Below, one piece after another: positions 15,622 to 25,440 of a DNA stretch of 27,766 nucleotides. Within the stretch, counting starts at the first letter, position 1. Each line of letters begins with the position of its first letter. The translations under genes and the position numbers were made by a program. The DNA lies in NCBI GenBank assembly GCA_038826135.1, contig JAWBON010000009.1, forward strand, positions 829 through 28,594. Reading direction: 5' to 3'. The notes below the pieces were generated by a model that saw only the letters and a list, made by a program, of their open reading frames with translations, did no database searches and was not told the DNA's origin. This stretch comes from Candidatus Odinarchaeota archaeon (lineage in GTDB: Archaea > Asgardarchaeota > Odinarchaeia > Odinarchaeales > Odinarchaeaceae).

Positions 15622-18600
15622 TCACTCGGTTCTTTTAATATAGCCAGGCTCCGGTTCAAATATCGTCCCATCGTTGAGCAGTCGCTGAAGAGCTTCTTTA
15701 ACGAATCCTTCTTCAAGCTGATATTCTTTAGCTCTATCTATGACGTCTTGGAGTGGGACCGTTCCTTTCTGCTCTTTTTCAAGGTTGGATATAATATCTA
15801 AAAGTGTGCTAAGCCTGTCACGTTGACTTTTAGGCGCCCCTGTCATTAATATGTCGATATCCATTTTACCAGTCTCCTTGTCCACGCCAACCTGGTGGAG
15901 GCATGATTTAACTAGTTTTATCACAGCTTCCGTATCTTCAACAGTAGCCTCTTTTTTAAGAGCCATTCTAGCTCTGGCTTCAACAAGACGTATTAAAGCT
16001 TCTAATTGACGGGCGGTTATGGGTACAGGTGAATCCTCTCCCTCCCCGGATTTTCGCATCTCTAAATAGAATTCCTGTATTTTTTTAGCAGCTTCAGGGC
16101 TTATTGAAGGCGAACAGTTTCTTTTAGCGTATGTTATATATTTTCTCAGAAAATCTATATCTAAGGGTGGCTCAACGCTCTCTCTTCTGTGAAGGGATAG
16201 TATGTGCTCAGCTATTTTACGATCTTTTTCTACATCCGGCTTATCAGTCACTATGAATATTAAATCAAATCTGCTTAGCAAGGTTACTGGTAATTTTATG
16301 TTATCCGCTGGGGTTCTATACTCGTTGTATCTTCCTAAAGCCGGGTTTGCAGCTGCAAGAATACTTGTTCTAGCATTCAGCGTGGCGATAATACCGGCTT
16401 TTGCGATACTTACCGTTCTCTGCTCCATCGCTTCATGTATCGCCACTCTATCCTGGGGGTTCATCTTATCAAACTCATCTATACAGTTATGCAGCCAGAC
16501 GCCGTTGCCATAAAAGTTGTTGAATCCAGGAACATAAAGGTCATAGACAAAGCCTTTATATGATTTTTTTCTAATGGCGACTATTTTATCCAAAAAATAG
16601 TCTCTTTTTGTAATTGTATTTATTTCATTATTAAGCCCTGCGGGAAGATAATTCGCCAGTTTGTCTCTGATTTTTTCTAATTGGATTCTAGACGGTTGAT
16701 TCTTTTGTTTATTATAAGCATATAAAGTGCTCCAGACTCCTTTTTTCACCAGAATCGATTTATTTAAATTACTTATAGCTTTACTTATTCTTGACACTGC
16801 TTGGCTTGGTAATTTATCGCTGTCTGATGAAACTTTATTTATAGAAGGAGGAATTTTCGTCTTTTGAACTTTAATACTATGTTCTTTCATTAATTTACAG
16901 AAATTATTCACGTCAGCTCTTCCAGTTATTCTAATTATATTCGCATTCTTTTTTATTAATAATTTAGAATAGACATCTAATCTTCTCAGAGCTTGCATAA
17001 AGGCTAAATCTTTTTTCTTATTATCAGAAAGAAGAAATTCTATATGTGCCGTATAATATTTTTTATCTTTTTTTCTGCTTTTCTTAATAGATACATAACC
17101 GTCAGAATCAAAGGCTCCTGCTATAAATTCTTTAAGACAGTTTTGAGGTAATTCTAAAATATTTTTCAGATTCTCTTTTAAAAAGTAATCAATAATGAAA
17201 GTTAATAGATTCGAGCGAATAAATAATTCAGTAAATTTTTCTGAAACTTGTTGATCCTTAATAATTGAATTATTCTCTCTCTGGTGTTCCCATAATTTTC
17301 TATACGAAATTTTTTCTATACATTTCTTTAATTTATCGATAATTTCTTTTTTCTTTATTGGTTGTTTTATTTGAATCATCGATCCTCTTTTATTAATTTG
17401 ATAAGTTCCATCACCATATACAACGCCTAAAAGATAAGAGAGTTCCGGTGTTATTTTGCTAATTTTTAAGGTTTCACCCATCTTTTTACGTGCATATTTA
17501 ATAGGTTTATCTTTCCATTCGTCAATTAAATTGAAATAATTTAAAATTTCTTTGAATTTTCCTAACTTAAAGTGTTCATTACCTGAAAGAATTCCTCTCT
17601 TTATATTGAAAGCTTTATTGAATTCGCTGACGCTTCTAAAGTTTTGTAAAATTATTTTTTTCAATTTTTGTTTATCACTTTTTGACAGAATAACCAGCCA
17701 ATCTTCAGGTATGATATCGAATAAATATATTTCCCTCTTAGGCTCGCTGATTTTTAAAGGGGCTATGATATAATCCCCTACTTTAAATTCCTGGGCCGAT
17801 CTCCATGTAATACTATTTCCATCTATTAATTTATGGTCGGGTGTTAAATTCAACTCAAACCCGGAATTTAATTTAATATGAATAATTTCACCGTCATATT
17901 TCTTTCTTCTAATAATATTCGATTCTGTCTGAGTGGACTCAAATTTTTCCAAGTTAAAGGTTTTAATCTCACCGTTAATTGGGGCGATTTGAATTTCTTC
18001 ACCATTACTGTACCTGATTTGCATTAAATCTTCATTAAATAATTTCTCAATCGATATAATTCTATTATTAAAAATTATATCGGTGTTTGGATGTAAACAT
18101 GCTAAACCTTTATCAGCTAAAACTAGTGCCCCTGCTTCAAGAGCCATCGCTCCGGACTCATCTTTTAAAACAGCGGCTGTGTTATGAACTAGTAATCCGT
18201 TAGCTATGAAGCTGTGGCTGTCTTCAACAGTGACATCGTATACCCATTGATGAATGTTAGAGTTTGAAAACTCAATTTTTTTAACTTTATCCCAGAAAAT
18301 ATCTGTCTCTTTCAAATCTTCTGGTGCATATGATGGTTGACTTGAGGTTTCGGTTATACTCGTCTCCTTGTGTGTTAGCGGCGTGGTATAAATTTTATAG
18401 TATGGTGGTTTATTGTAAACGCTATTTTGTGAATTAATCCAGGTTTTCTGTAGATGTTCAACTGCTTTTTCAAGTTTTTCTCTTTTCAACTTTGATTTTG
18501 AACCTATCCTGTCACGATAAATTATTAATTCAAAACCGTTTATAGTAAGTGTTTGAGCTTTATCCTGGGATGTCTTATCTGATTTAAATTCTTTTTTATC

Positions 18601-21591
18601 AGAATCTGTTAATCCTTCACCCTCTATTCTCGCTATAATACCGTATCTGAGAAGTGCTAGTTGTATTTTTCTAGCTATAAGCTTGTTTGGTAGACTGATA
18701 CTTATGTTAGGTGTTCCTTCTCTTGTTAGTGAAATATCAGCTAAATAGTCGAATAGACCTGATATAAATGCTGCCATCTCTTTCTCTCTTAGTGAAAGAG
18801 TTAGTTCGCTTAAATCTATTATTTCATTATCTTCGGTGGCTAAACCAGCTTTATTAAGGATTTTTGCTATTATTCTCGAACTTATTACTAATTCTAGTCC
18901 GTTTTCAGTCTCTTCCGGTAGGATGTTGAAAACTCTTTTTACTGTTTCACTGAATAAGTTTATTAACTCGCGTGAACTGGTTGCGAATCGGATTCTATCT
19001 GCCTTCTCCGGAGTTTTATTGTATATACGGCTGCCTGCGACTAATCCTGTAATATACATGATTCCCCAGTTCAGGTAAGCGGGTATTTTAAGCCTATTCT
19101 CCCCACTTTCATAATACTCTCTTATATAGCGGGTTATATAATTTAAGCTGAATCCTGCGTTTTTCGAATATTTGATAAACTCTCTTAAAGGTATTTTAAC
19201 AGTATCACAACTTTCAACAGTTCTAGCATGCTTCTCTTTATCTAATTCGCTTATAGTCTGATTTTTTATATTTTCTAAAATATTTTTATTATTTAATTTT
19301 TCAAGGGTTTTTTTAAAAAATGTTTTCATCACGCCAACTTCAATGTTTTCATCATCGCCGATAAGCGCTAAAATATTTACTCTCTTACCATTATAGATTA
19401 TTCTCCGCGCCGCTGCTAAATAATCGTTGACTGTGAAGTCTGCGGCTTTCTTCCAGTATATTAAGCCGTTTTCTAATGTTTTCATTTTAGTTTCAGGTGT
19501 GAGTGTAATCTCTCGGCCAGTATATGTTAATATTTTAACAAGTTTTTCCGGTGTTTTTATCTTCCATAAACCAGTCACTTTTTTATCAACGTTTTTAAAC
19601 GGGTTGATTGTTTTAATTTTAATCTCAGTTTTAGGGTTAACTTTATACACTCCTTCCTGAATTTTTAAGGCTCCCTCGTTTAAGTGCTCTTCTACGAGTT
19701 TGCCGATTTCGTAAGGTGTTTCATCTTTAACTATTATCGTATCAGGCGCTACGCAAAGCCCGGCCGCGGAGGAGCCTTTACCGGAAGTGTATAGGCCTCG
19801 CGGCGCTAGTTGAGCTGTATATTGGAGGATTTGACTATTATGCACATAAAAATCGTTAGCTATGAAATTATTCGACCCTGGGACCTGCAGGTCATACACC
19901 CATTGAGATGTAGGTTTTATTCTCGCAATTTTCGTGATTCTATCCCAGAATATGTCAGTTTCGCATATTAGGCTTAATCGCTGGAGGCTTTCACTAGAGC
20001 CATGCTGTTTAACATGTTCAATAATTTTTTTAAGATGTGTTACATTCGCCTCTAAATCCCCGTTTTCATATTTCTTGTATAAGGGCTCTGGGATCCCCAT
20101 CTGATTTATTTGAAGATTTCTTTCCTCTCTGATTTTTTTAAGGAGTTGTCTTACACCTGGTATTATAGTTAAACCAGCCTTTTTATCTGTATTTTCCAGT
20201 CTAGATGTGGCGATAAAATCTTCTAAGGATAGTTCCTTTGCTTCCTTACAGAATATTAATCCATTATTCGTTGTGTAAAAAGGATGGGTTGGTGTTACCG
20301 TGATCTCTTTTCCATGCTCTGTTTTAATATTAATCATGTAGGATGGCGCGCTTCTCTTCCAGAATATATTCGCTTCAGCCGGTTCTATCCGACCTCTCCG
20401 GTTCATAGTTAATATTATAACAGAACCGTTAGCGTAGTATCCGTCATCTATTATGTTAGTGTTTTTTTCAAGGTTTTCTTCAACTAGTTCCTCTATTCTA
20501 CGTTTCTCCCCTGAAGCCATTAGAACAAGAGCGCCGGGTGCTAGGCATTTTGCTGTCCCCGGGTCTCCTACAAGTAAAATGTTTGATTCACCTCTGATTT
20601 TCATAGAGTCGGGTAGTACTTTACTAACACCGCCGAATAGTTGGAGTGCTATGGCTTCTTTGACGTCTTCTAATCCGTATATGCTCGGGGCTATGCTTTT
20701 AATTATCTTGTTATGGATTTCCGGATCCCGGCTTATTTCAAGTATCTTCTGCTCGTCTTCCGGTGTAATCTCTGTTTTCTCTAATTCTTTCTCTGTTATG
20801 TCGATATAGTTTGCTTCTAAATAGATCTTGAAGGTGCTTAGTTTAGTTCTGCCTGCATATTCCGGTGTGCTTCTCAGAATACCTATAATACTTACTCTGT
20901 CACCGGGTCTGGCTGAGTCTACAAGATCGTATGTTAGGATAGCGTCTATCGCTCTTGGTAGCTGGCCTGGCGGTAACTCCTCGGGTTTCTCTTGGACTCT
21001 TATTTTCTGCCAATCTTCAAATTTAGATTCTTCATTTATCAGTCTAAAAGGCCCGTTTCTTCTACAATTAGTGTTCTCGCATATTATTGGTTTAATTATC
21101 TCCGTGGTCTCCTGTCTCACAAAGTTTCTGTAATGGCATCTTAGGCATTCGAAGGCGGCCTCTACCAGTCTTGGTTTAACTTCACTCGCTCTAGTTAGTA
21201 TTCCATCTATCATTACTAGAATGCCGATATGTTCGCTTCTTATTTTACGGAGTGGTATATGATTAATGCTCGGTAGGTTTCTAAATCTCACAAAAAGCGC
21301 TCTATCCTCGTTTTTAAGCTTCTCAAAGTATTCTCGATCTTCAAGTTCTAGTACAGTCATAGCCGCTCGGTCTGCTGCTTTAATCACCTCTTCAGGTTTT
21401 AAAAGCAAATCTCTTGCTATCTCAGCGTCGTATCTTAGAAGATCGTCGAAATCAACTATTATAGATATTTTATTCTCTATGCTTAGCTGCTGAATTTTTC
21501 TTCGATATTTTAATTCATTTTTCTGATCTTTAAAGCTTTTAAAGAAGTCTTCAAACTTCTCTTCAGGATCTATTGCAGCCTCTTCACTCAT
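15622..21591 (-). CDS. mcm: MCM replicative helicase precursor (1989 aa) with three inteins; spliced product 689 aa
   Basis: Zn finger CLRC..CENTNC, IAPSIYG, Walker A GDPGTAK|S, GKGSSAAGL|T, ADKGLA|CIDEFDKM, SRFD arginine finger, ITARQLE, C-terminal wHTH. Confidence 0.97.
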   Translation of the reverse strand: MSEEAAIDPEEKFEDFFKSFKDQKNELKYRRKIQQLSIENKISIIVDFDDLLRYDAEIARDLLLKPEEVIKAADRAAMTVLELEDREYFEKLKNEDRALFVRFRNLPSINHIPLRKIRSEHIGILVMIDGILTRASEVKPRLVEAAFECLRCHYRNFVRQETTEIIKPIICENTNCRRNGPFRLINEESKFEDWQKIRVQEKPEELPPGQLPRAIDAILTYDLVDSARPGDRVSIIGILRSTPEYAGRTKLSTFKIYLEANYIDITEKELEKTEITPEDEQKILEISRDPEIHNKIIKSIAPSIYGLEDVKEAIALQLFGGVSKVLPDSMKIRGESNILLVGDPGTAKCLAPGALVLMASGEKRRIEELVEENLEKNTNIIDDGYYANGSVIILTMNRRGRIEPAEANIFWKRSAPSYMINIKTEHGKEITVTPTHPFYTTNNGLIFCKEAKELSLEDFIATSRLENTDKKAGLTIIPGVRQLLKKIREERNLQINQMGIPEPLYKKYENGDLEANVTHLKKIIEHVKQHGSSESLQRLSLICETDIFWDRITKIARIKPTSQWVYDLQVPGSNNFIANDFYVHNSQILQYTAQLAPRGLYTSGKGSSAAGLCVAPDTIIVKDETPYEIGKLVEEHLNEGALKIQEGVYKVNPKTEIKIKTINPFKNVDKKVTGLWKIKTPEKLVKILTYTGREITLTPETKMKTLENGLIYWKKAADFTVNDYLAAARRIIYNGKRVNILALIGDDENIEVGVMKTFFKKTLEKLNNKNILENIKNQTISELDKEKHARTVESCDTVKIPLREFIKYSKNAGFSLNYITRYIREYYESGENRLKIPAYLNWGIMYITGLVAGSRIYNKTPEKADRIRFATSSRELINLFSETVKRVFNILPEETENGLELVISSRIIAKILNKAGLATEDNEIIDLSELTLSLREKEMAAFISGLFDYLADISLTREGTPNISISLPNKLIARKIQLALLRYGIIARIEGEGLTDSDKKEFKSDKTSQDKAQTLTINGFELIIYRDRIGSKSKLKREKLEKAVEHLQKTWINSQNSVYNKPPYYKIYTTPLTHKETSITETSSQPSYAPEDLKETDIFWDKVKKIEFSNSNIHQWVYDVTVEDSHSFIANGLLVHNTAAVLKDESGAMALEAGALVLADKGLACLHPNTDIIFNNRIISIEKLFNEDLMQIRYSNGEEIQIAPINGEIKTFNLEKFESTQTESNIIRRKKYDGEIIHIKLNSGFELNLTPDHKLIDGNSITWRSAQEFKVGDYIIAPLKISEPKREIYLFDIIPEDWLVILSKSDKQKLKKIILQNFRSVSEFNKAFNIKRGILSGNEHFKLGKFKEILNYFNLIDEWKDKPIKYARKKMGETLKISKITPELSYLLGVVYGDGTYQINKRGSMIQIKQPIKKKEIIDKLKKCIEKISYRKLWEHQRENNSIIKDQQVSEKFTELFIRSNLLTFIIDYFLKENLKNILELPQNCLKEFIAGAFDSDGYVSIKKSRKKDKKYYTAHIEFLLSDNKKKDLAFMQALRRLDVYSKLLIKKNANIIRITGRADVNNFCKLMKEHSIKVQKTKIPPSINKVSSDSDKLPSQAVSRISKAISNLNKSILVKKGVWSTLYAYNKQKNQPSRIQLEKIRDKLANYLPAGLNNEINTITKRDYFLDKIVAIRKKSYKGFVYDLYVPGFNNFYGNGVWLHNCIDEFDKMNPQDRVAIHEAMEQRTVSIAKAGIIATLNARTSILAAANPALGRYNEYRTPADNIKLPVTLLSRFDLIFIVTDKPDVEKDRKIAEHILSLHRRESVEPPLDIDFLRKYITYAKRNCSPSISPEAAKKIQEFYLEMRKSGEGEDSPVPITARQLEALIRLVEARARMALKKEATVEDTEAVIKLVKSCLHQVGVDKETGKMDIDILMTGAPKSQRDRLSTLLDIISNLEKEQKGTVPLQDVIDRAKEYQLEEGFVKEALQRLLNDGTIFEPEPGYIKRTE
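16486..18099 (-). mobile_element. MCM intein 3 (538 aa, before Walker B) with apparently intact LAGLIDADG homing endonuclease
   Basis: Starts C (CLHPNT), block B TPDH, YLLGVVYGDG and FIAGAFDSDG, block F VYDLYV, ends WLHN followed by Cys(+1). Confidence 0.95.
18181..19755 (-). mobile_element. MCM intein 2 (525 aa) with degenerate LAGLIDADG domain
   Basis: Starts CVAPDT, block B TPET, degenerate YITGLVAGSR and FISGLFDYLA, VYDVTVEDSHSFIANG, ends VHN followed by Thr(+1). Confidence 0.94.
19837..20547 (-). mobile_element. MCM intein 1 (237 aa, in Walker A), endonuclease-free, with internal XRE-like HTH
   Basis: Starts CLAPG directly after the P-loop Lys, block B TPTHPF, VYDLQV, ends VHN followed by Ser(+1). 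No LAGLIDADG motif seen. Confidence 0.94.
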
Positions 21592-23420: not shown

Positions 23421-24836
23421 ATGGTTTCTATGCGGTTTAAGTGCCCTAGATGTGGTAAGATTTACGTGGCGGAGCGGGTTCTCTCCCTTTGCGAGGGGTG
23501 TGCTTCCCCCCTTATTTATTTTTATGATTATTCTAAAATCAAGGATACGCTCTCCTTTTCAGATGAGAAGTCTTTTTGGAGGTTCTCATCTCTTCTCCCT
23601 CCTATTGAATCCAAGTTTAGAATCTCATTGGGTGAGGGTGTTACACCCATCTTCAGGTCCACTCGGATGGGTTCTATTATAGGATTGAATAACTTGTTTT
23701 TGAAGGATGAATCACGTAATCCTACAAACTCATTCAGGGATAGAGCTGCCAGTCTACTGATCTCACATGCTTTAAGTTTAAATTTCAGTGAGGTTCTATG
23801 CGCCTCTAATGGGAATCTAGGGGCAGCTATTTCCGCTTATTGCGCTAGGGCTGATATTAAGAGCACGATTGTCACGCCCAGTCTGGTTGATATCGGTAAA
23901 CTATCTCAAATGAAAATGTACGGTGCTAATATTGTTTATGAGGGTGAAACTATTGATGAAGCTATCCGTTTTGTCCTTGAAGACTGGAAGGATAAAAATA
24001 TGTATCAGGCAACGTCGGGGCTTAACCCGCTTATATTAGAGGCTCAGAAGACAATCGCGTATGAGATTATTGAGCAGGTGGGTGTGCCTGATTTTGTCAT
24101 TGTGCCTATGGGGGACGGTGGAACTATTTACTCTATTTGGAGAGGTTTCAGAGAATTCTATGATTTAGGTTTATCTTCTAAGCTGCCAAAGATGATTGGT
24201 GTGCAGTCCCTCACGTGCTCACCTATCGTTAAAGCTTTTGAAAAAAACTCTGATGTGACGCGTTTTCCCGGTGGAACAACTATTGCTTTAGCTATACTGG
24301 TTTTAGAGCCTTTAAACGGGTGGTTGGCTTTATCAGCTTTGAAGGAGTCTGAGGGTGTTGCCTTATCGGTTTCTGATAAAGAGATTTCTGACTCTCAAAG
24401 ACTGCTAGCATTAGAGGAGGGGATATACGCTGAGACAGCTAGTTGCGCGACATTGGCGGCTGTTAGGAGGCTGGCTACGGATGGTGTTATAGGAAGAGAT
24501 GATCTTGTTACGTGTATAATTACAGGAAGTGGGTTAAAGGACCAGTACTTGCTGGCGGCTTTAACTGGGTTATCTAGGAGAGTTAATTTAGCTGATAGAG
24601 TTAATTTGAAGCTTCGAATATTAAGGTTGATTTCGCTTGGAGAAACTTACGGTTACTCGCTCTGGAATTCTTTATCGAAATCAGTTACTTTACAAGCTAT
24701 ATATCAGCATCTTAATGAATTAGAGACTCGTGGGCTAATAGTTTCTACGGATAGGGATAATCGGAGATATTATTCTATAACTGGTAGGGGTCTTAAAGTG
24801 CTTAATGCTTTAGAGGAGCTTGCGTTTCTTCTTTAG
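23421..24836 (+). CDS. Threonine-synthase-fold (PLP fold type II) protein with Lys-to-Arg at the PLP site, fused to a C-terminal PadR-like winged helix
   Basis: Zn ribbon CPRC..CEGC, SLGEGVTP, LKDESRNPTNSFRDR, ASNGNLG, VPMGDGG, TGSGLKD. Residues ~394-471: ILRLI..GETYGY, IYQHLNELETRGLI, RRYYSITGRG. Confidence 0.88.
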   Translation: MVSMRFKCPRCGKIYVAERVLSLCEGCASPLIYFYDYSKIKDTLSFSDEKSFWRFSSLLPPIESKFRISLGEGVTPIFRSTRMGSIIGLNNLFLKDESRNPTNSFRDRAASLLISHALSLNFSEVLCASNGNLGAAISAYCARADIKSTIVTPSLVDIGKLSQMKMYGANIVYEGETIDEAIRFVLEDWKDKNMYQATSGLNPLILEAQKTIAYEIIEQVGVPDFVIVPMGDGGTIYSIWRGFREFYDLGLSSKLPKMIGVQSLTCSPIVKAFEKNSDVTRFPGGTTIALAILVLEPLNGWLALSALKESEGVALSVSDKEISDSQRLLALEEGIYAETASCATLAAVRRLATDGVIGRDDLVTCIITGSGLKDQYLLAALTGLSRRVNLADRVNLKLRILRLISLGETYGYSLWNSLSKSVTLQAIYQHLNELETRGLIVSTDRDNRRYYSITGRGLKVLNALEELAFLL

Positions 24837-24841
24837 AAATA

Positions 24842-24880
24842 TTTATATAAAAGTTAACTCTTGTATACAAGTAATTACTT
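24842..24880 (+). promoter_or_regulatory. TATA box plus three abutting palindromes (candidate operator) upstream of the ECF S-component gene
   Basis: TTTATATA 24842-24849; AGTTAACT 24852-24859; CTTGTATACAAG 24860-24871; AAGTAATTACTT 24869-24880. Confidence 0.65.
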
Positions 24881-24894
24881 TAATATGTGGTCCT

Positions 24895-25440
24895 ATGATA
24901 ACGCAGTCTATTAAGGCAAGGTTCCCCAACTATCCAGTATCAGTCCAAGCAGCGTTAATAGGTTTATTCGCAGCGTTAACCATAATATTAACAATAATCA
25001 TTCAGATACCTGTGCCCGCTACAGGCGGATACATTAACATAGGCGACGCCGCTGTGATGCTCGCAGGCTTGTTGTTCGGACCTGTTATTGGAGGCATAGC
25101 TGGCGGTTTAGGATCTGCACTAGCCGATATAATCACCGGCTACGCGTTTTACGCCCCGTGGACGCTGATAATCAAAGGGGTTGAAGGCTTTCTAGCCGGG
25201 TTTATCAGTAGAAGAGACCGTTTCACATACTTTGATATCATAGCTTGTTTTCTAGTAGCTGGACCATGGATGATAGCAGGGTATTTTATGGTTGAAACCT
25301 TACTGTTTAGTTCAGCTGCAGCTATAGTTGAACTCCCGCTGAATGCGGTTCAATTCAGTGTAGGCGGGGCGGTCGCTTTACCTGTATCCATAGCTGCTAG
25401 GAAAATTACGCCGCCGCTGAACGCTTTTAAAGGTAGATGA
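24895..25440 (+). CDS. ECF transporter substrate-binding (S) component, COG4720-like
   Basis: AALIGLFAAL (AxxxA), IPVPATGGYINIGD, LFGP..GGIAGGLGSALAD, APWTLIIKGVEG; about 6 TMs. ATG 24895 is preferred over TTG 24820, which overlaps the upstream gene and its promoter. Confidence 0.88.
   Translation: MITQSIKARFPNYPVSVQAALIGLFAALTIILTIIIQIPVPATGGYINIGDAAVMLAGLLFGPVIGGIAGGLGSALADIITGYAFYAPWTLIIKGVEGFLAGFISRRDRFTYFDIIACFLVAGPWMIAGYFMVETLLFSSAAAIVELPLNAVQFSVGGAVALPVSIAARKITPPLNAFKGR

Follow-up and report, generated by a model that had tools for sequence, protein, structure and literature searches.

Why would an archaeon keep, besides its threonine synthase (ThrC), a second protein of the same fold that lacks the catalytic lysine and ends in a predicted DNA-binding domain? 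The question is raised by a gene at 23421..24836 on the forward strand of a 27,766-nucleotide stretch of Candidatus Odinarchaeota archaeon DNA (contig JAWBON010000009.1, positions 829 to 28,594), referred to below as the window. Its 471-residue product, in which a ThrC-like domain is fused to a PadR-type winged helix-turn-helix (wHTH), carries the name 'threonine synthase' in public databases, as do its relatives. We propose instead, with a probability of roughly 0.65, that this ThrC-PadR fusion is a one-component transcription factor: a dimeric repressor of the adjacent vitamin B6-uptake gene that senses pyridoxal 5'-phosphate (PLP). A first-pass annotation of the sequence had already suggested that an enzyme scaffold was here converted to a one-component sensor, and that idea gains support from the loss of the lysine in company with the PadR fusion and from the B6 genes found nearby.

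A threonine synthase fold without its lysine

The fusion protein begins with a four-cysteine zinc ribbon (C8, C11, C24 and C27; 23442..23501), continues with a fold-type II PLP domain of the threonine-synthase fold (residues 68-369; 23622..24527), and ends, beyond a flexible linker (residues 375-394; 24543..24602), in a PadR-type wHTH with a C-terminal helix (residues 395-471; 24603..24833), all on the forward strand. Pfam places a PALP domain on residues 68-369 (E 2.9e-69) and a PadR domain (PF03551) on residues 400-461; the latter scores 30.2 bits against a cut-off of 27, spans profile positions 1-73 of 75, and reaches up to 49 bits among homologues. The best matches among solved structures are threonine synthases (2zsj at E 1.3e-58, then 2d1f, 6cgq and 1uim, by phmmer against the PDB), and the threonine synthase model TIGR00260 gives 196.9 bits against a cut-off of 167.1, which confirms homology to ThrC. 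An AlphaFold2 (AF2) model built on 42 homologues has a mean predicted local distance difference test score (pLDDT) of 90.1 and shows the zinc ribbon, the ThrC-like body, the disordered linker and the winged helix with its final helix (395-470) in that order, the linker being the sole long stretch with pLDDT below 50. Foldseek aligns this model to Bacillus subtilis ThrC (6cgq_B) with a template modelling (TM) score of 0.88. The tail is modelled, mostly at pLDDT 85-96, as helices 395-405, 411-417 and 424-436, strands 440-445 and 448-453, and helix 455-470, which is the helix-helix-helix-strand-strand-helix topology expected of PadR. Both ends of the protein are also marked by conservation across the 42 fused homologues: the zinc-ribbon cysteines are invariant or at least 90% conserved, and G411, Y412, Y428, Q429, H430, L431 and G457 of the tail are invariant or nearly so. 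The first-pass description of a retained zinc ribbon and of about 78 C-terminal residues forming a PadR-like domain was thus accurate; a zinc ribbon is likewise present in the genome's canonical archaeal ThrC. A further model, NF004170 (PRK05638, 'threonine synthase'), returns 373.1 bits, below its cut-off of 421, and its 442 positions cover residues 6-465, the wHTH included, which suggests that an enzyme's name has been given to a model of the fused family.

At the position of the PLP Schiff-base lysine the protein has Arg106, encoded by AGG at 23736..23738 on the forward strand and read directly within S-F-R-D-R (residues 104-108), as the first-pass annotation had reported; the arginine pairs with the Schiff-base lysine of 2zsj and 2d1f in alignments to the solved enzymes. 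The accompanying caveat, that AAG to AGG is a single-base change, has lost its force. All 120 of the closest homologues, which are PALP plus PadR fusions of about 466 residues from Odinarchaeia (75% identity) and Bathyarchaeia (about 48%), have arginine there, in the form S-[FY]-R-D-R, and in different lineages it is spelled with four codons (AGG, AGA, CGA and CGT). A sequencing error or a recent mutation is thereby ruled out, and the four spellings point to selection for arginine within that branch of the family.

Loss of the lysine extends well beyond these nearest relatives and travels with the tail, as the first-pass annotation had proposed should be checked. Among representatives at 50% identity from an exhaustive search, 72 of 74 PadR fusions lack lysine at the site, compared with 1 of 78 proteins that have no PadR tail, in which the column is 98% lysine. 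The replacements in the fusions are varied (Leu 18, Arg 17, Ile 14, Val 7, Thr 5, Met 4, Phe 3 and others), and alanine also occurs in the family; members of the arginine type extend to metagenome-assembled genomes of Thermococcus. In a tree of the enzyme-like domain alone the PadR fusions form a single clade, with a support of 97 in the Shimodaira-Hasegawa approximate likelihood ratio test (SH-aLRT). One branch of this clade has hydrophobic residues at the site and the other arginine, with two small lysine subclades nested within the latter (L035, L036, L042-L045 and L115; P0123 and P0124). At least three changes at the site are required; the tree comes from a quick search with moderate support, and we do not press the order of events. 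Fused orthologues with lysine, named in the first-pass annotation as grounds for refutation, do exist, as these two small subclades within a family that otherwise lacks it, and their members may be covalent-binding variants of the sensor. Four lysine-bearing proteins of about 620 residues (P0216, P0226, P0237 and P0238) were rejected as PadR fusions and left out of the fused count: their C-terminus is a LeuA allosteric/dimerisation domain (PF08502), found by Pfam in P0216 and P0238 and assigned in P0226 and P0237 by length and alignment. They constitute another kind of ThrC fusion, possibly a feedback-regulated enzyme.

What surrounds the lost lysine has been kept selectively. The cofactor-site columns N100, P101, T102, S104, D107, R108, G131, N132, G231, G233, T368, G371 and K373 are as conserved in the fusions as in the enzymes, and the protein retains the cofactor motifs NPT, G131-N132, the G231-x-G233 loop and T368-G-x-G-L-K. 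The first-pass annotation had held that cofactor and substrate-pocket motifs alike persist, citing the strings ASNGN, VPMGDGG and TGSGLKD. These strings are present, and the claim stands for the cofactor site; it fails for the residues specific to the ThrC substrate. In the alignment to solved ThrC, the canonical S-T-G-N-T has become S-N-G-N-L, N-S-x-N-P-x-R has become S-G-L-N-P-L-I, and G-N-A-G-N has become G-D-G-G-T. The residues replaced include those that hold the phosphate of O-phosphohomoserine in the Thermus thermophilus structures, namely the threonine of the first motif, the N-S and arginine of the second, and the asparagine of the third. The separate lysine-bearing thrC whose presence was to be checked does exist in this genome, divided between the ends of contigs C83 and C89, and it has S-F-K-D-R and all three ThrC motifs. 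The cell thus has its enzyme, and the paralogue has a conserved pocket without the chemistry. In one Bathyarchaeia subclade (L030, L037, L038 and L039) the canonical lysine-bearing thrC lies divergently upstream of the fused gene, an arrangement that may be a trace of the duplication that founded the family or may reflect co-regulation. Regulation of threonine synthesis through an adjacent thrC was considered as a role for the family and set aside, the arrangement being confined to that subclade.

The protein is also predicted to form a homodimer, with a score of 0.78 against 0.00 for the best of three controls, contact agreement of at least 62% and a partner pLDDT of at least 84 across the runs. 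Of the proteins used for calibration, 20 of the 30 whose structures are pairs of one chain attained this mark, as did 1 of the 23 solved as single chains. The predicted interface lies in the ThrC-like domain (residues 99-103, 139-145, 159-168, 327-336 and 370-373) and touches the pocket loops; solved ThrC dimers resemble it, so the result may reflect that likeness. Such a homodimer fits the palindromic sites described below, and it would place the ligand site where the two wings could be affected.

Linkage to genes for vitamin B6 uptake and synthesis

The next gene on the same strand (24895..25440), whose ATG at 24895 lies 58 bp downstream of the fusion gene, is the proposed target of regulation. 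It encodes the S-component of a PdxU2/HmpT-type energy-coupling factor (ECF) transporter, assigned by Pfam PF07155 (129.4 bits), by its sole sequence match in the PDB, chain S of 4HZU (HmpT/PdxU2; E 9.3e-18), and by conserved adjacency. PF07155 comprises PdxU and PdxU2/HmpT, which are two of only three listed types of prokaryotic B6 transporter (PMC9997740), and the substrate extracted from the protein in 4HZU was pyridoxamine (PMC4860826). The six pocket residues of HmpT (E41, H84, Q87, Y120, N140 and Q143) correspond to D, K, E, Y, N and Q in our S-component, so that three are identical and two of the changes are conservative. Two CbiQ-type T-component genes, on contigs C6 and C43, are present in the genome and could belong to the ECF energising module, of which the T components were the part searched for.

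To place this adjacency in context we compared 80 species-representative loci together with Asgard relatives, each with at least 700 bp on both sides. Of 40 fused loci, 31 have a PF07155 gene no more than 400 bp away, whereas none of 41 loci with an unfused ThrC does, and this transporter gene stays beside the fused gene while the other surroundings vary. The association is found in Asgard archaea, Bathyarchaeia, Nitrososphaerota and Desulfurococcales and takes three forms: co-directional and downstream in the arginine branch (as in Odinarchaeia and Bathyarchaeia), divergent and upstream in the hydrophobic branch, and mostly convergent in the lysine subclades. We argue that three arrangements across several phyla indicate functional coupling, although relatives are not independent samples. 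Elsewhere in the family it is genes for making the vitamin that adjoin the regulator. In an Asgard genome (G012), and likewise in the separate assembly containing P0133, the PLP synthase genes pdxS and pdxT come directly after a fused gene with leucine at the site; in another lineage pdxT precedes, with a 4-nucleotide overlap, a fused gene with alanine at the site. The uptake and synthesis genes of one vitamin are thus tied to one family of regulators, which matches the pattern of PdxR in bacteria (PMC5320631).

The genomes themselves favour B6 over the pyrimidine moiety of thiamine as the compound concerned. PdxS was not found in the host genome (93% complete), in three congeneric genomes (one of them closed, and 98% complete) or in three genomes of the same order, and ThiC is present in all seven. 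The pyrimidine is therefore makeable and PLP apparently is not, which favours uptake of B6; a ThiD/PdxK-family kinase is also encoded in the host genome. Judged by these genes, the Odinarchaeia of this genus and order appear to be auxotrophic for vitamin B6 and to rely on the surrounding community for it. The ligands listed in the first-pass annotation (B6 vitamers, a PLP-amino-acid adduct, and phosphohomoserine or threonine) can accordingly be narrowed: the neighbouring transporter and pdxS-pdxT genes, and the finding of ThiC and not PdxS, favour the vitamers, while phosphohomoserine is disfavoured because the phosphate-holding residues of ThrC have been replaced.

Two further features of these neighbourhoods deserve mention. 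A PurM-superfamily protein of 306-335 residues, recognised by its AIRS and AIRS_C domains, is found repeatedly next to the regulator or its transporter, in four lineages (L014:8298-9218, L124:2842-3849 and L130:2044-3051 among them), and a copy that is 40% identical lies away from the regulator locus in the host genome (G000:C83:1984-2898). It falls under every NCBIfam cut-off, the best partial matches being HypE, SelD and ThiL, and it could be a further member of a B6 regulon, for example an unrecognised B6 kinase. Where no B6 gene adjoins the fused gene, its neighbours (GINS, hydrogenase, GatE, FttA, ribose-5-phosphate isomerase, topoisomerase and others) showed no pattern. As to the wider locus, the regulator shares synteny with GINS, MCM and Hel308 in other Asgard genomes, and the MCM gene of the window (15622-21591, reverse strand) encodes 1989 residues with three intein-splicing matches and LAGLIDADG endonuclease domains.

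Candidate operators, the proposed switch and its rivals

The intergenic region upstream of the transporter gene contains a predicted promoter and a candidate operator. A TATA-like box, TTTATATA, lies at 24842..24849 on the forward strand, its position conserved in four congeneric genomes. About 10 bp past it, and before the start codon, is a perfect 12-bp palindrome, CTTGTATACAAG, at 24860-24871. With the TA that follows it, this palindrome makes up a 14-mer (24860..24873) that is the longest invariant run in the alignment of the region across the four congeners. Many archaeal repressors act from such a position, between TATA box and start codon and spanning the expected start of transcription. 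A flanking palindrome noticed at the first stage, AAGTAATTACTT, was rejected because it is not conserved in the congeners, among which only the central 14-mer is. Comparable sites occur in more distant relatives: separated inverted half-sites, TATACAAG and CTTGTATA, at the same place in genomes of the same order; a 22-bp palindrome with the consensus TAGTAwAGTTATAACTwTACTA at the same position in about 13 Bathyarchaeia loci; and CCTATATATAGG-like sites in the divergent promoter of the hydrophobic branch. These conserved palindromes at target promoters, taken with the predicted homodimer, point indirectly to a PadR tail that would bind specific DNA sequences as a dimer.

Genome-wide scans find the operator essentially once per genome. 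In five Bathyarchaeia genomes the operator of that clade occurs once in each with one exception, where the extra copy lies directly upstream of a second, unlinked PF07155 gene (L111:585-1499, reverse strand), so that operator sites are found only at PF07155 genes. This extra operator is the most direct support for the relation between operator and target. The gene concerned encodes 305 residues, about 145 of them an N-terminal extension, and adjoins an apparent tRNA gene, recognised by eye, and a tyrosine-integrase gene (L111: 1560-1670 and 1732-2961); it may lie on an integrated element. The exact 12-mer CTTGTATACAAG has a single occurrence in the 1.26-Mb host genome, and the 14-mer with up to two mismatches is no commoner there than a reversed control. 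A regulon beyond the neighbouring gene was therefore discarded for this genome, in which the protein looks like a local regulator without additional targets. Separately, two Asgard genomes, G011 and G021, have the regulator but no target next to it, and their pdxS promoters (L126:1845-2001, reverse strand, and L127:924-1023) share conserved palindromes of the type TAAAGAAA-N-CTTTA, situated between a TATA-like box and the start. The palindromes may be operators acting at a distance, but they could not be tied to the ThrC-PadR regulator.

The mechanism that we propose runs as follows. A ThrC-derived fold-type II domain would have lost its Schiff-base lysine and its contacts to phosphohomoserine and kept its cofactor pocket, so that the old cofactor site could bind a phosphorylated B6 vitamer, most likely PLP or else pyridoxamine or pyridoxine 5'-phosphate, reversibly and non-covalently. 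Because such binding is non-covalent, occupancy of the site could track the free pool. The protein would dimerise through its enzyme-like domain, and two PadR wings on flexible linkers would bind CTTGTATACAAG(TA). When B6 is plentiful the liganded dimer would block transcription of the PdxU2/HmpT-type uptake gene, and when B6 is scarce it would release the operator; in relatives pdxS-pdxT would be controlled instead, or as well. We lean slightly towards a wider proposition, that the ThrC-PadR family is the missing regulator of archaeal B6 homeostasis, acting on uptake (pdxU-type) and synthesis (pdxST) genes in Asgard archaea, Bathyarchaeia, Nitrososphaerota, Thermococci and Thermoproteota, and that removal of the aldimine lysine turned an enzyme into a reversible PLP sensor, the lysine subclades being covalent-binding variants if, as the tree allows, they are reversions from arginine.

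Several observations weigh against a PLP-sensing repressor of B6 uptake. The two fused subclades that keep lysine imply that its loss is not required for the regulatory role, and 9 of the 40 fused loci are without an adjacent B6 gene. The specificity of the transporter is extrapolated from the 4HZU chain S homologue, with which half of the six pocket residues are shared and whose substrate was once predicted to be hydroxymethylpyrimidine; the identity of the ligand is drawn from genomic context and the conserved pocket, and the choice of repression over activation from the position of the operator only. Finally, the four congeners are 84% identical across the whole intergenic region, so that the footprint within the genus is weak on its own, and no copy of the palindrome, which might have marked autoregulation, was seen in the 103 bp that precede the regulator gene.

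The rival explanations can be weighed against the same body of evidence. It is conceivable, if doubtful, that the protein is just such a regulator but responds to another ligand, such as hydroxymethylpyrimidine phosphate (similar in shape to PLP), a PLP-amino-acid adduct, or threonine or phosphohomoserine, with the S-component importing that compound or a precursor. HmpT was indeed first predicted to carry hydroxymethylpyrimidine (PMC4860826), and the PurM-superfamily gene that recurs nearby is weakly similar to ThiL; yet the genus and order have ThiC in every genome and PdxS in none, and other members of the family sit in operons with pdxS-pdxT. Threonine or phosphohomoserine might be indicated by the canonical thrC divergently upstream of the fused gene in four Bathyarchaeia loci, but these belong to one subclade and count as a single event, and the residues that hold the phosphate of phosphohomoserine in ThrC are replaced.

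Two other rivals would have the protein retain catalysis. Enzyme-regulator hybrids exist for other vitamins, and a bifunctional protein in the manner of BirA or archaeal RbkR, which would bind DNA and in addition have a lysine-independent activity or carry out chemistry on non-covalently held PLP, could account for a cofactor pocket as conserved as that of true enzymes and for two lysine subclades that could be active. Fold-type II chemistry, however, needs the Schiff-base lysine as aldimine partner and base, no single catalytic role fits a site that may hold Arg, Leu, Ile, Val, Met, Phe, Thr, Ala or others, the residues specific to the ThrC substrate are gone, and the genome has its canonical thrC; we consider this quite improbable. 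To the view that the gene encodes an ordinary threonine synthase, as annotated, its arginine being an assembly error or recent inactivating mutation and its tail an artefact of annotation, we attach next to no weight. The public names, the TIGR00260 score and the one-base distance between AAG and AGG speak for it, but it is contradicted by the survey of homologues, with arginine in every one of the nearest 120 and four codons in use, by a PadR domain that is in frame and modelled with high confidence, and by the canonical thrC elsewhere in the genome.

Comparison with known systems

Neither a ThrC-PadR regulator nor an archaeal regulator of B6 was described in any paper that full-text searches of the literature turned up, in agreement with the remark in the first-pass annotation that no characterised regulator of this architecture was known. 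How cells keep reactive PLP low yet sufficient has been called an open question (PMC9997740). Should the proposed function be correct, the family would represent an independent reinvention of the sensor that joins a PLP-enzyme fold to a winged helix, assembled from another enzyme fold and another DNA-binding family, and would illustrate a route from enzyme to sensor in which removal of the covalent anchor makes the cofactor site reversible. The Odinarchaeia genus, which seems unable to make PLP, would then depend on B6 from its community through an uptake gene under the control of the ThrC-PadR switch. There is also a matter of annotation to correct, as hundreds of archaeal genes are named 'threonine synthase', and the curated model NF004170 likewise.

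The closest parallel is with the bacterial MocR family (PdxR, GabR and TauR), whose members are likewise one-component regulators that combine a PLP-enzyme fold with a winged helix and sense PLP or amino compounds. PdxR regulons include pdxST, pdxK and pdxU (PMC5320631), and these kinds of gene, for synthesis, salvage and uptake of B6, are the kinds linked here to the ThrC-PadR family through PF07155 pdxU-type genes and pdxS-pdxT. In MocR proteins, however, the wHTH is of the GntR type and N-terminal, and the aminotransferase-like domain is of fold type I and keeps the PLP lysine; in the fusion protein the wHTH is of the PadR type and C-terminal, and the ThrC-like domain is of fold type II and lacks the lysine (Pfam finds PALP and PadR only). 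MocR is reported not to be present in Archaea (PMC5320631). Every feature that defines membership of MocR is thus missing, and the ThrC-PadR fusion is an analogue of PdxR and not a relative.

Measured against its two parent families, the protein is similarly divided. It shares with ThrC (2zsj, 2d1f, 6cgq and 1uim) its fold (TM 0.88, 32-35% identity), its predicted dimer interface, the archaeal-type zinc ribbon, the PLP phosphate loop and the N1-contacting threonine, and differs in the missing Schiff-base lysine, the replaced substrate-phosphate residues, the additional linker and PadR domain, and genomic links to B6 genes rather than to threonine synthesis. With PadR proteins (PF03551) of the short, LmrR-like type it has in common a wHTH of about 75 residues with a single C-terminal helix and palindromic candidate operators; known PadR proteins, however, are small and stand alone, and the phenolic acids or drugs that they sense are recognised inside their own domains or between them, whereas the wHTH of the fusion protein follows a 390-residue sensor of enzymatic origin, in which the predicted dimer interface lies. 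Within Archaea, ThiR (with a ThiN domain) and RbkR (with a riboflavin kinase domain) join a DNA-binding domain to a domain of vitamin metabolism and control the synthesis and uptake genes of that vitamin. The fusion protein differs from both in its vitamin and in its domains, which are unrelated to theirs, and in having drawn its sensor from an enzyme that uses the cofactor and not from one that makes the vitamin.

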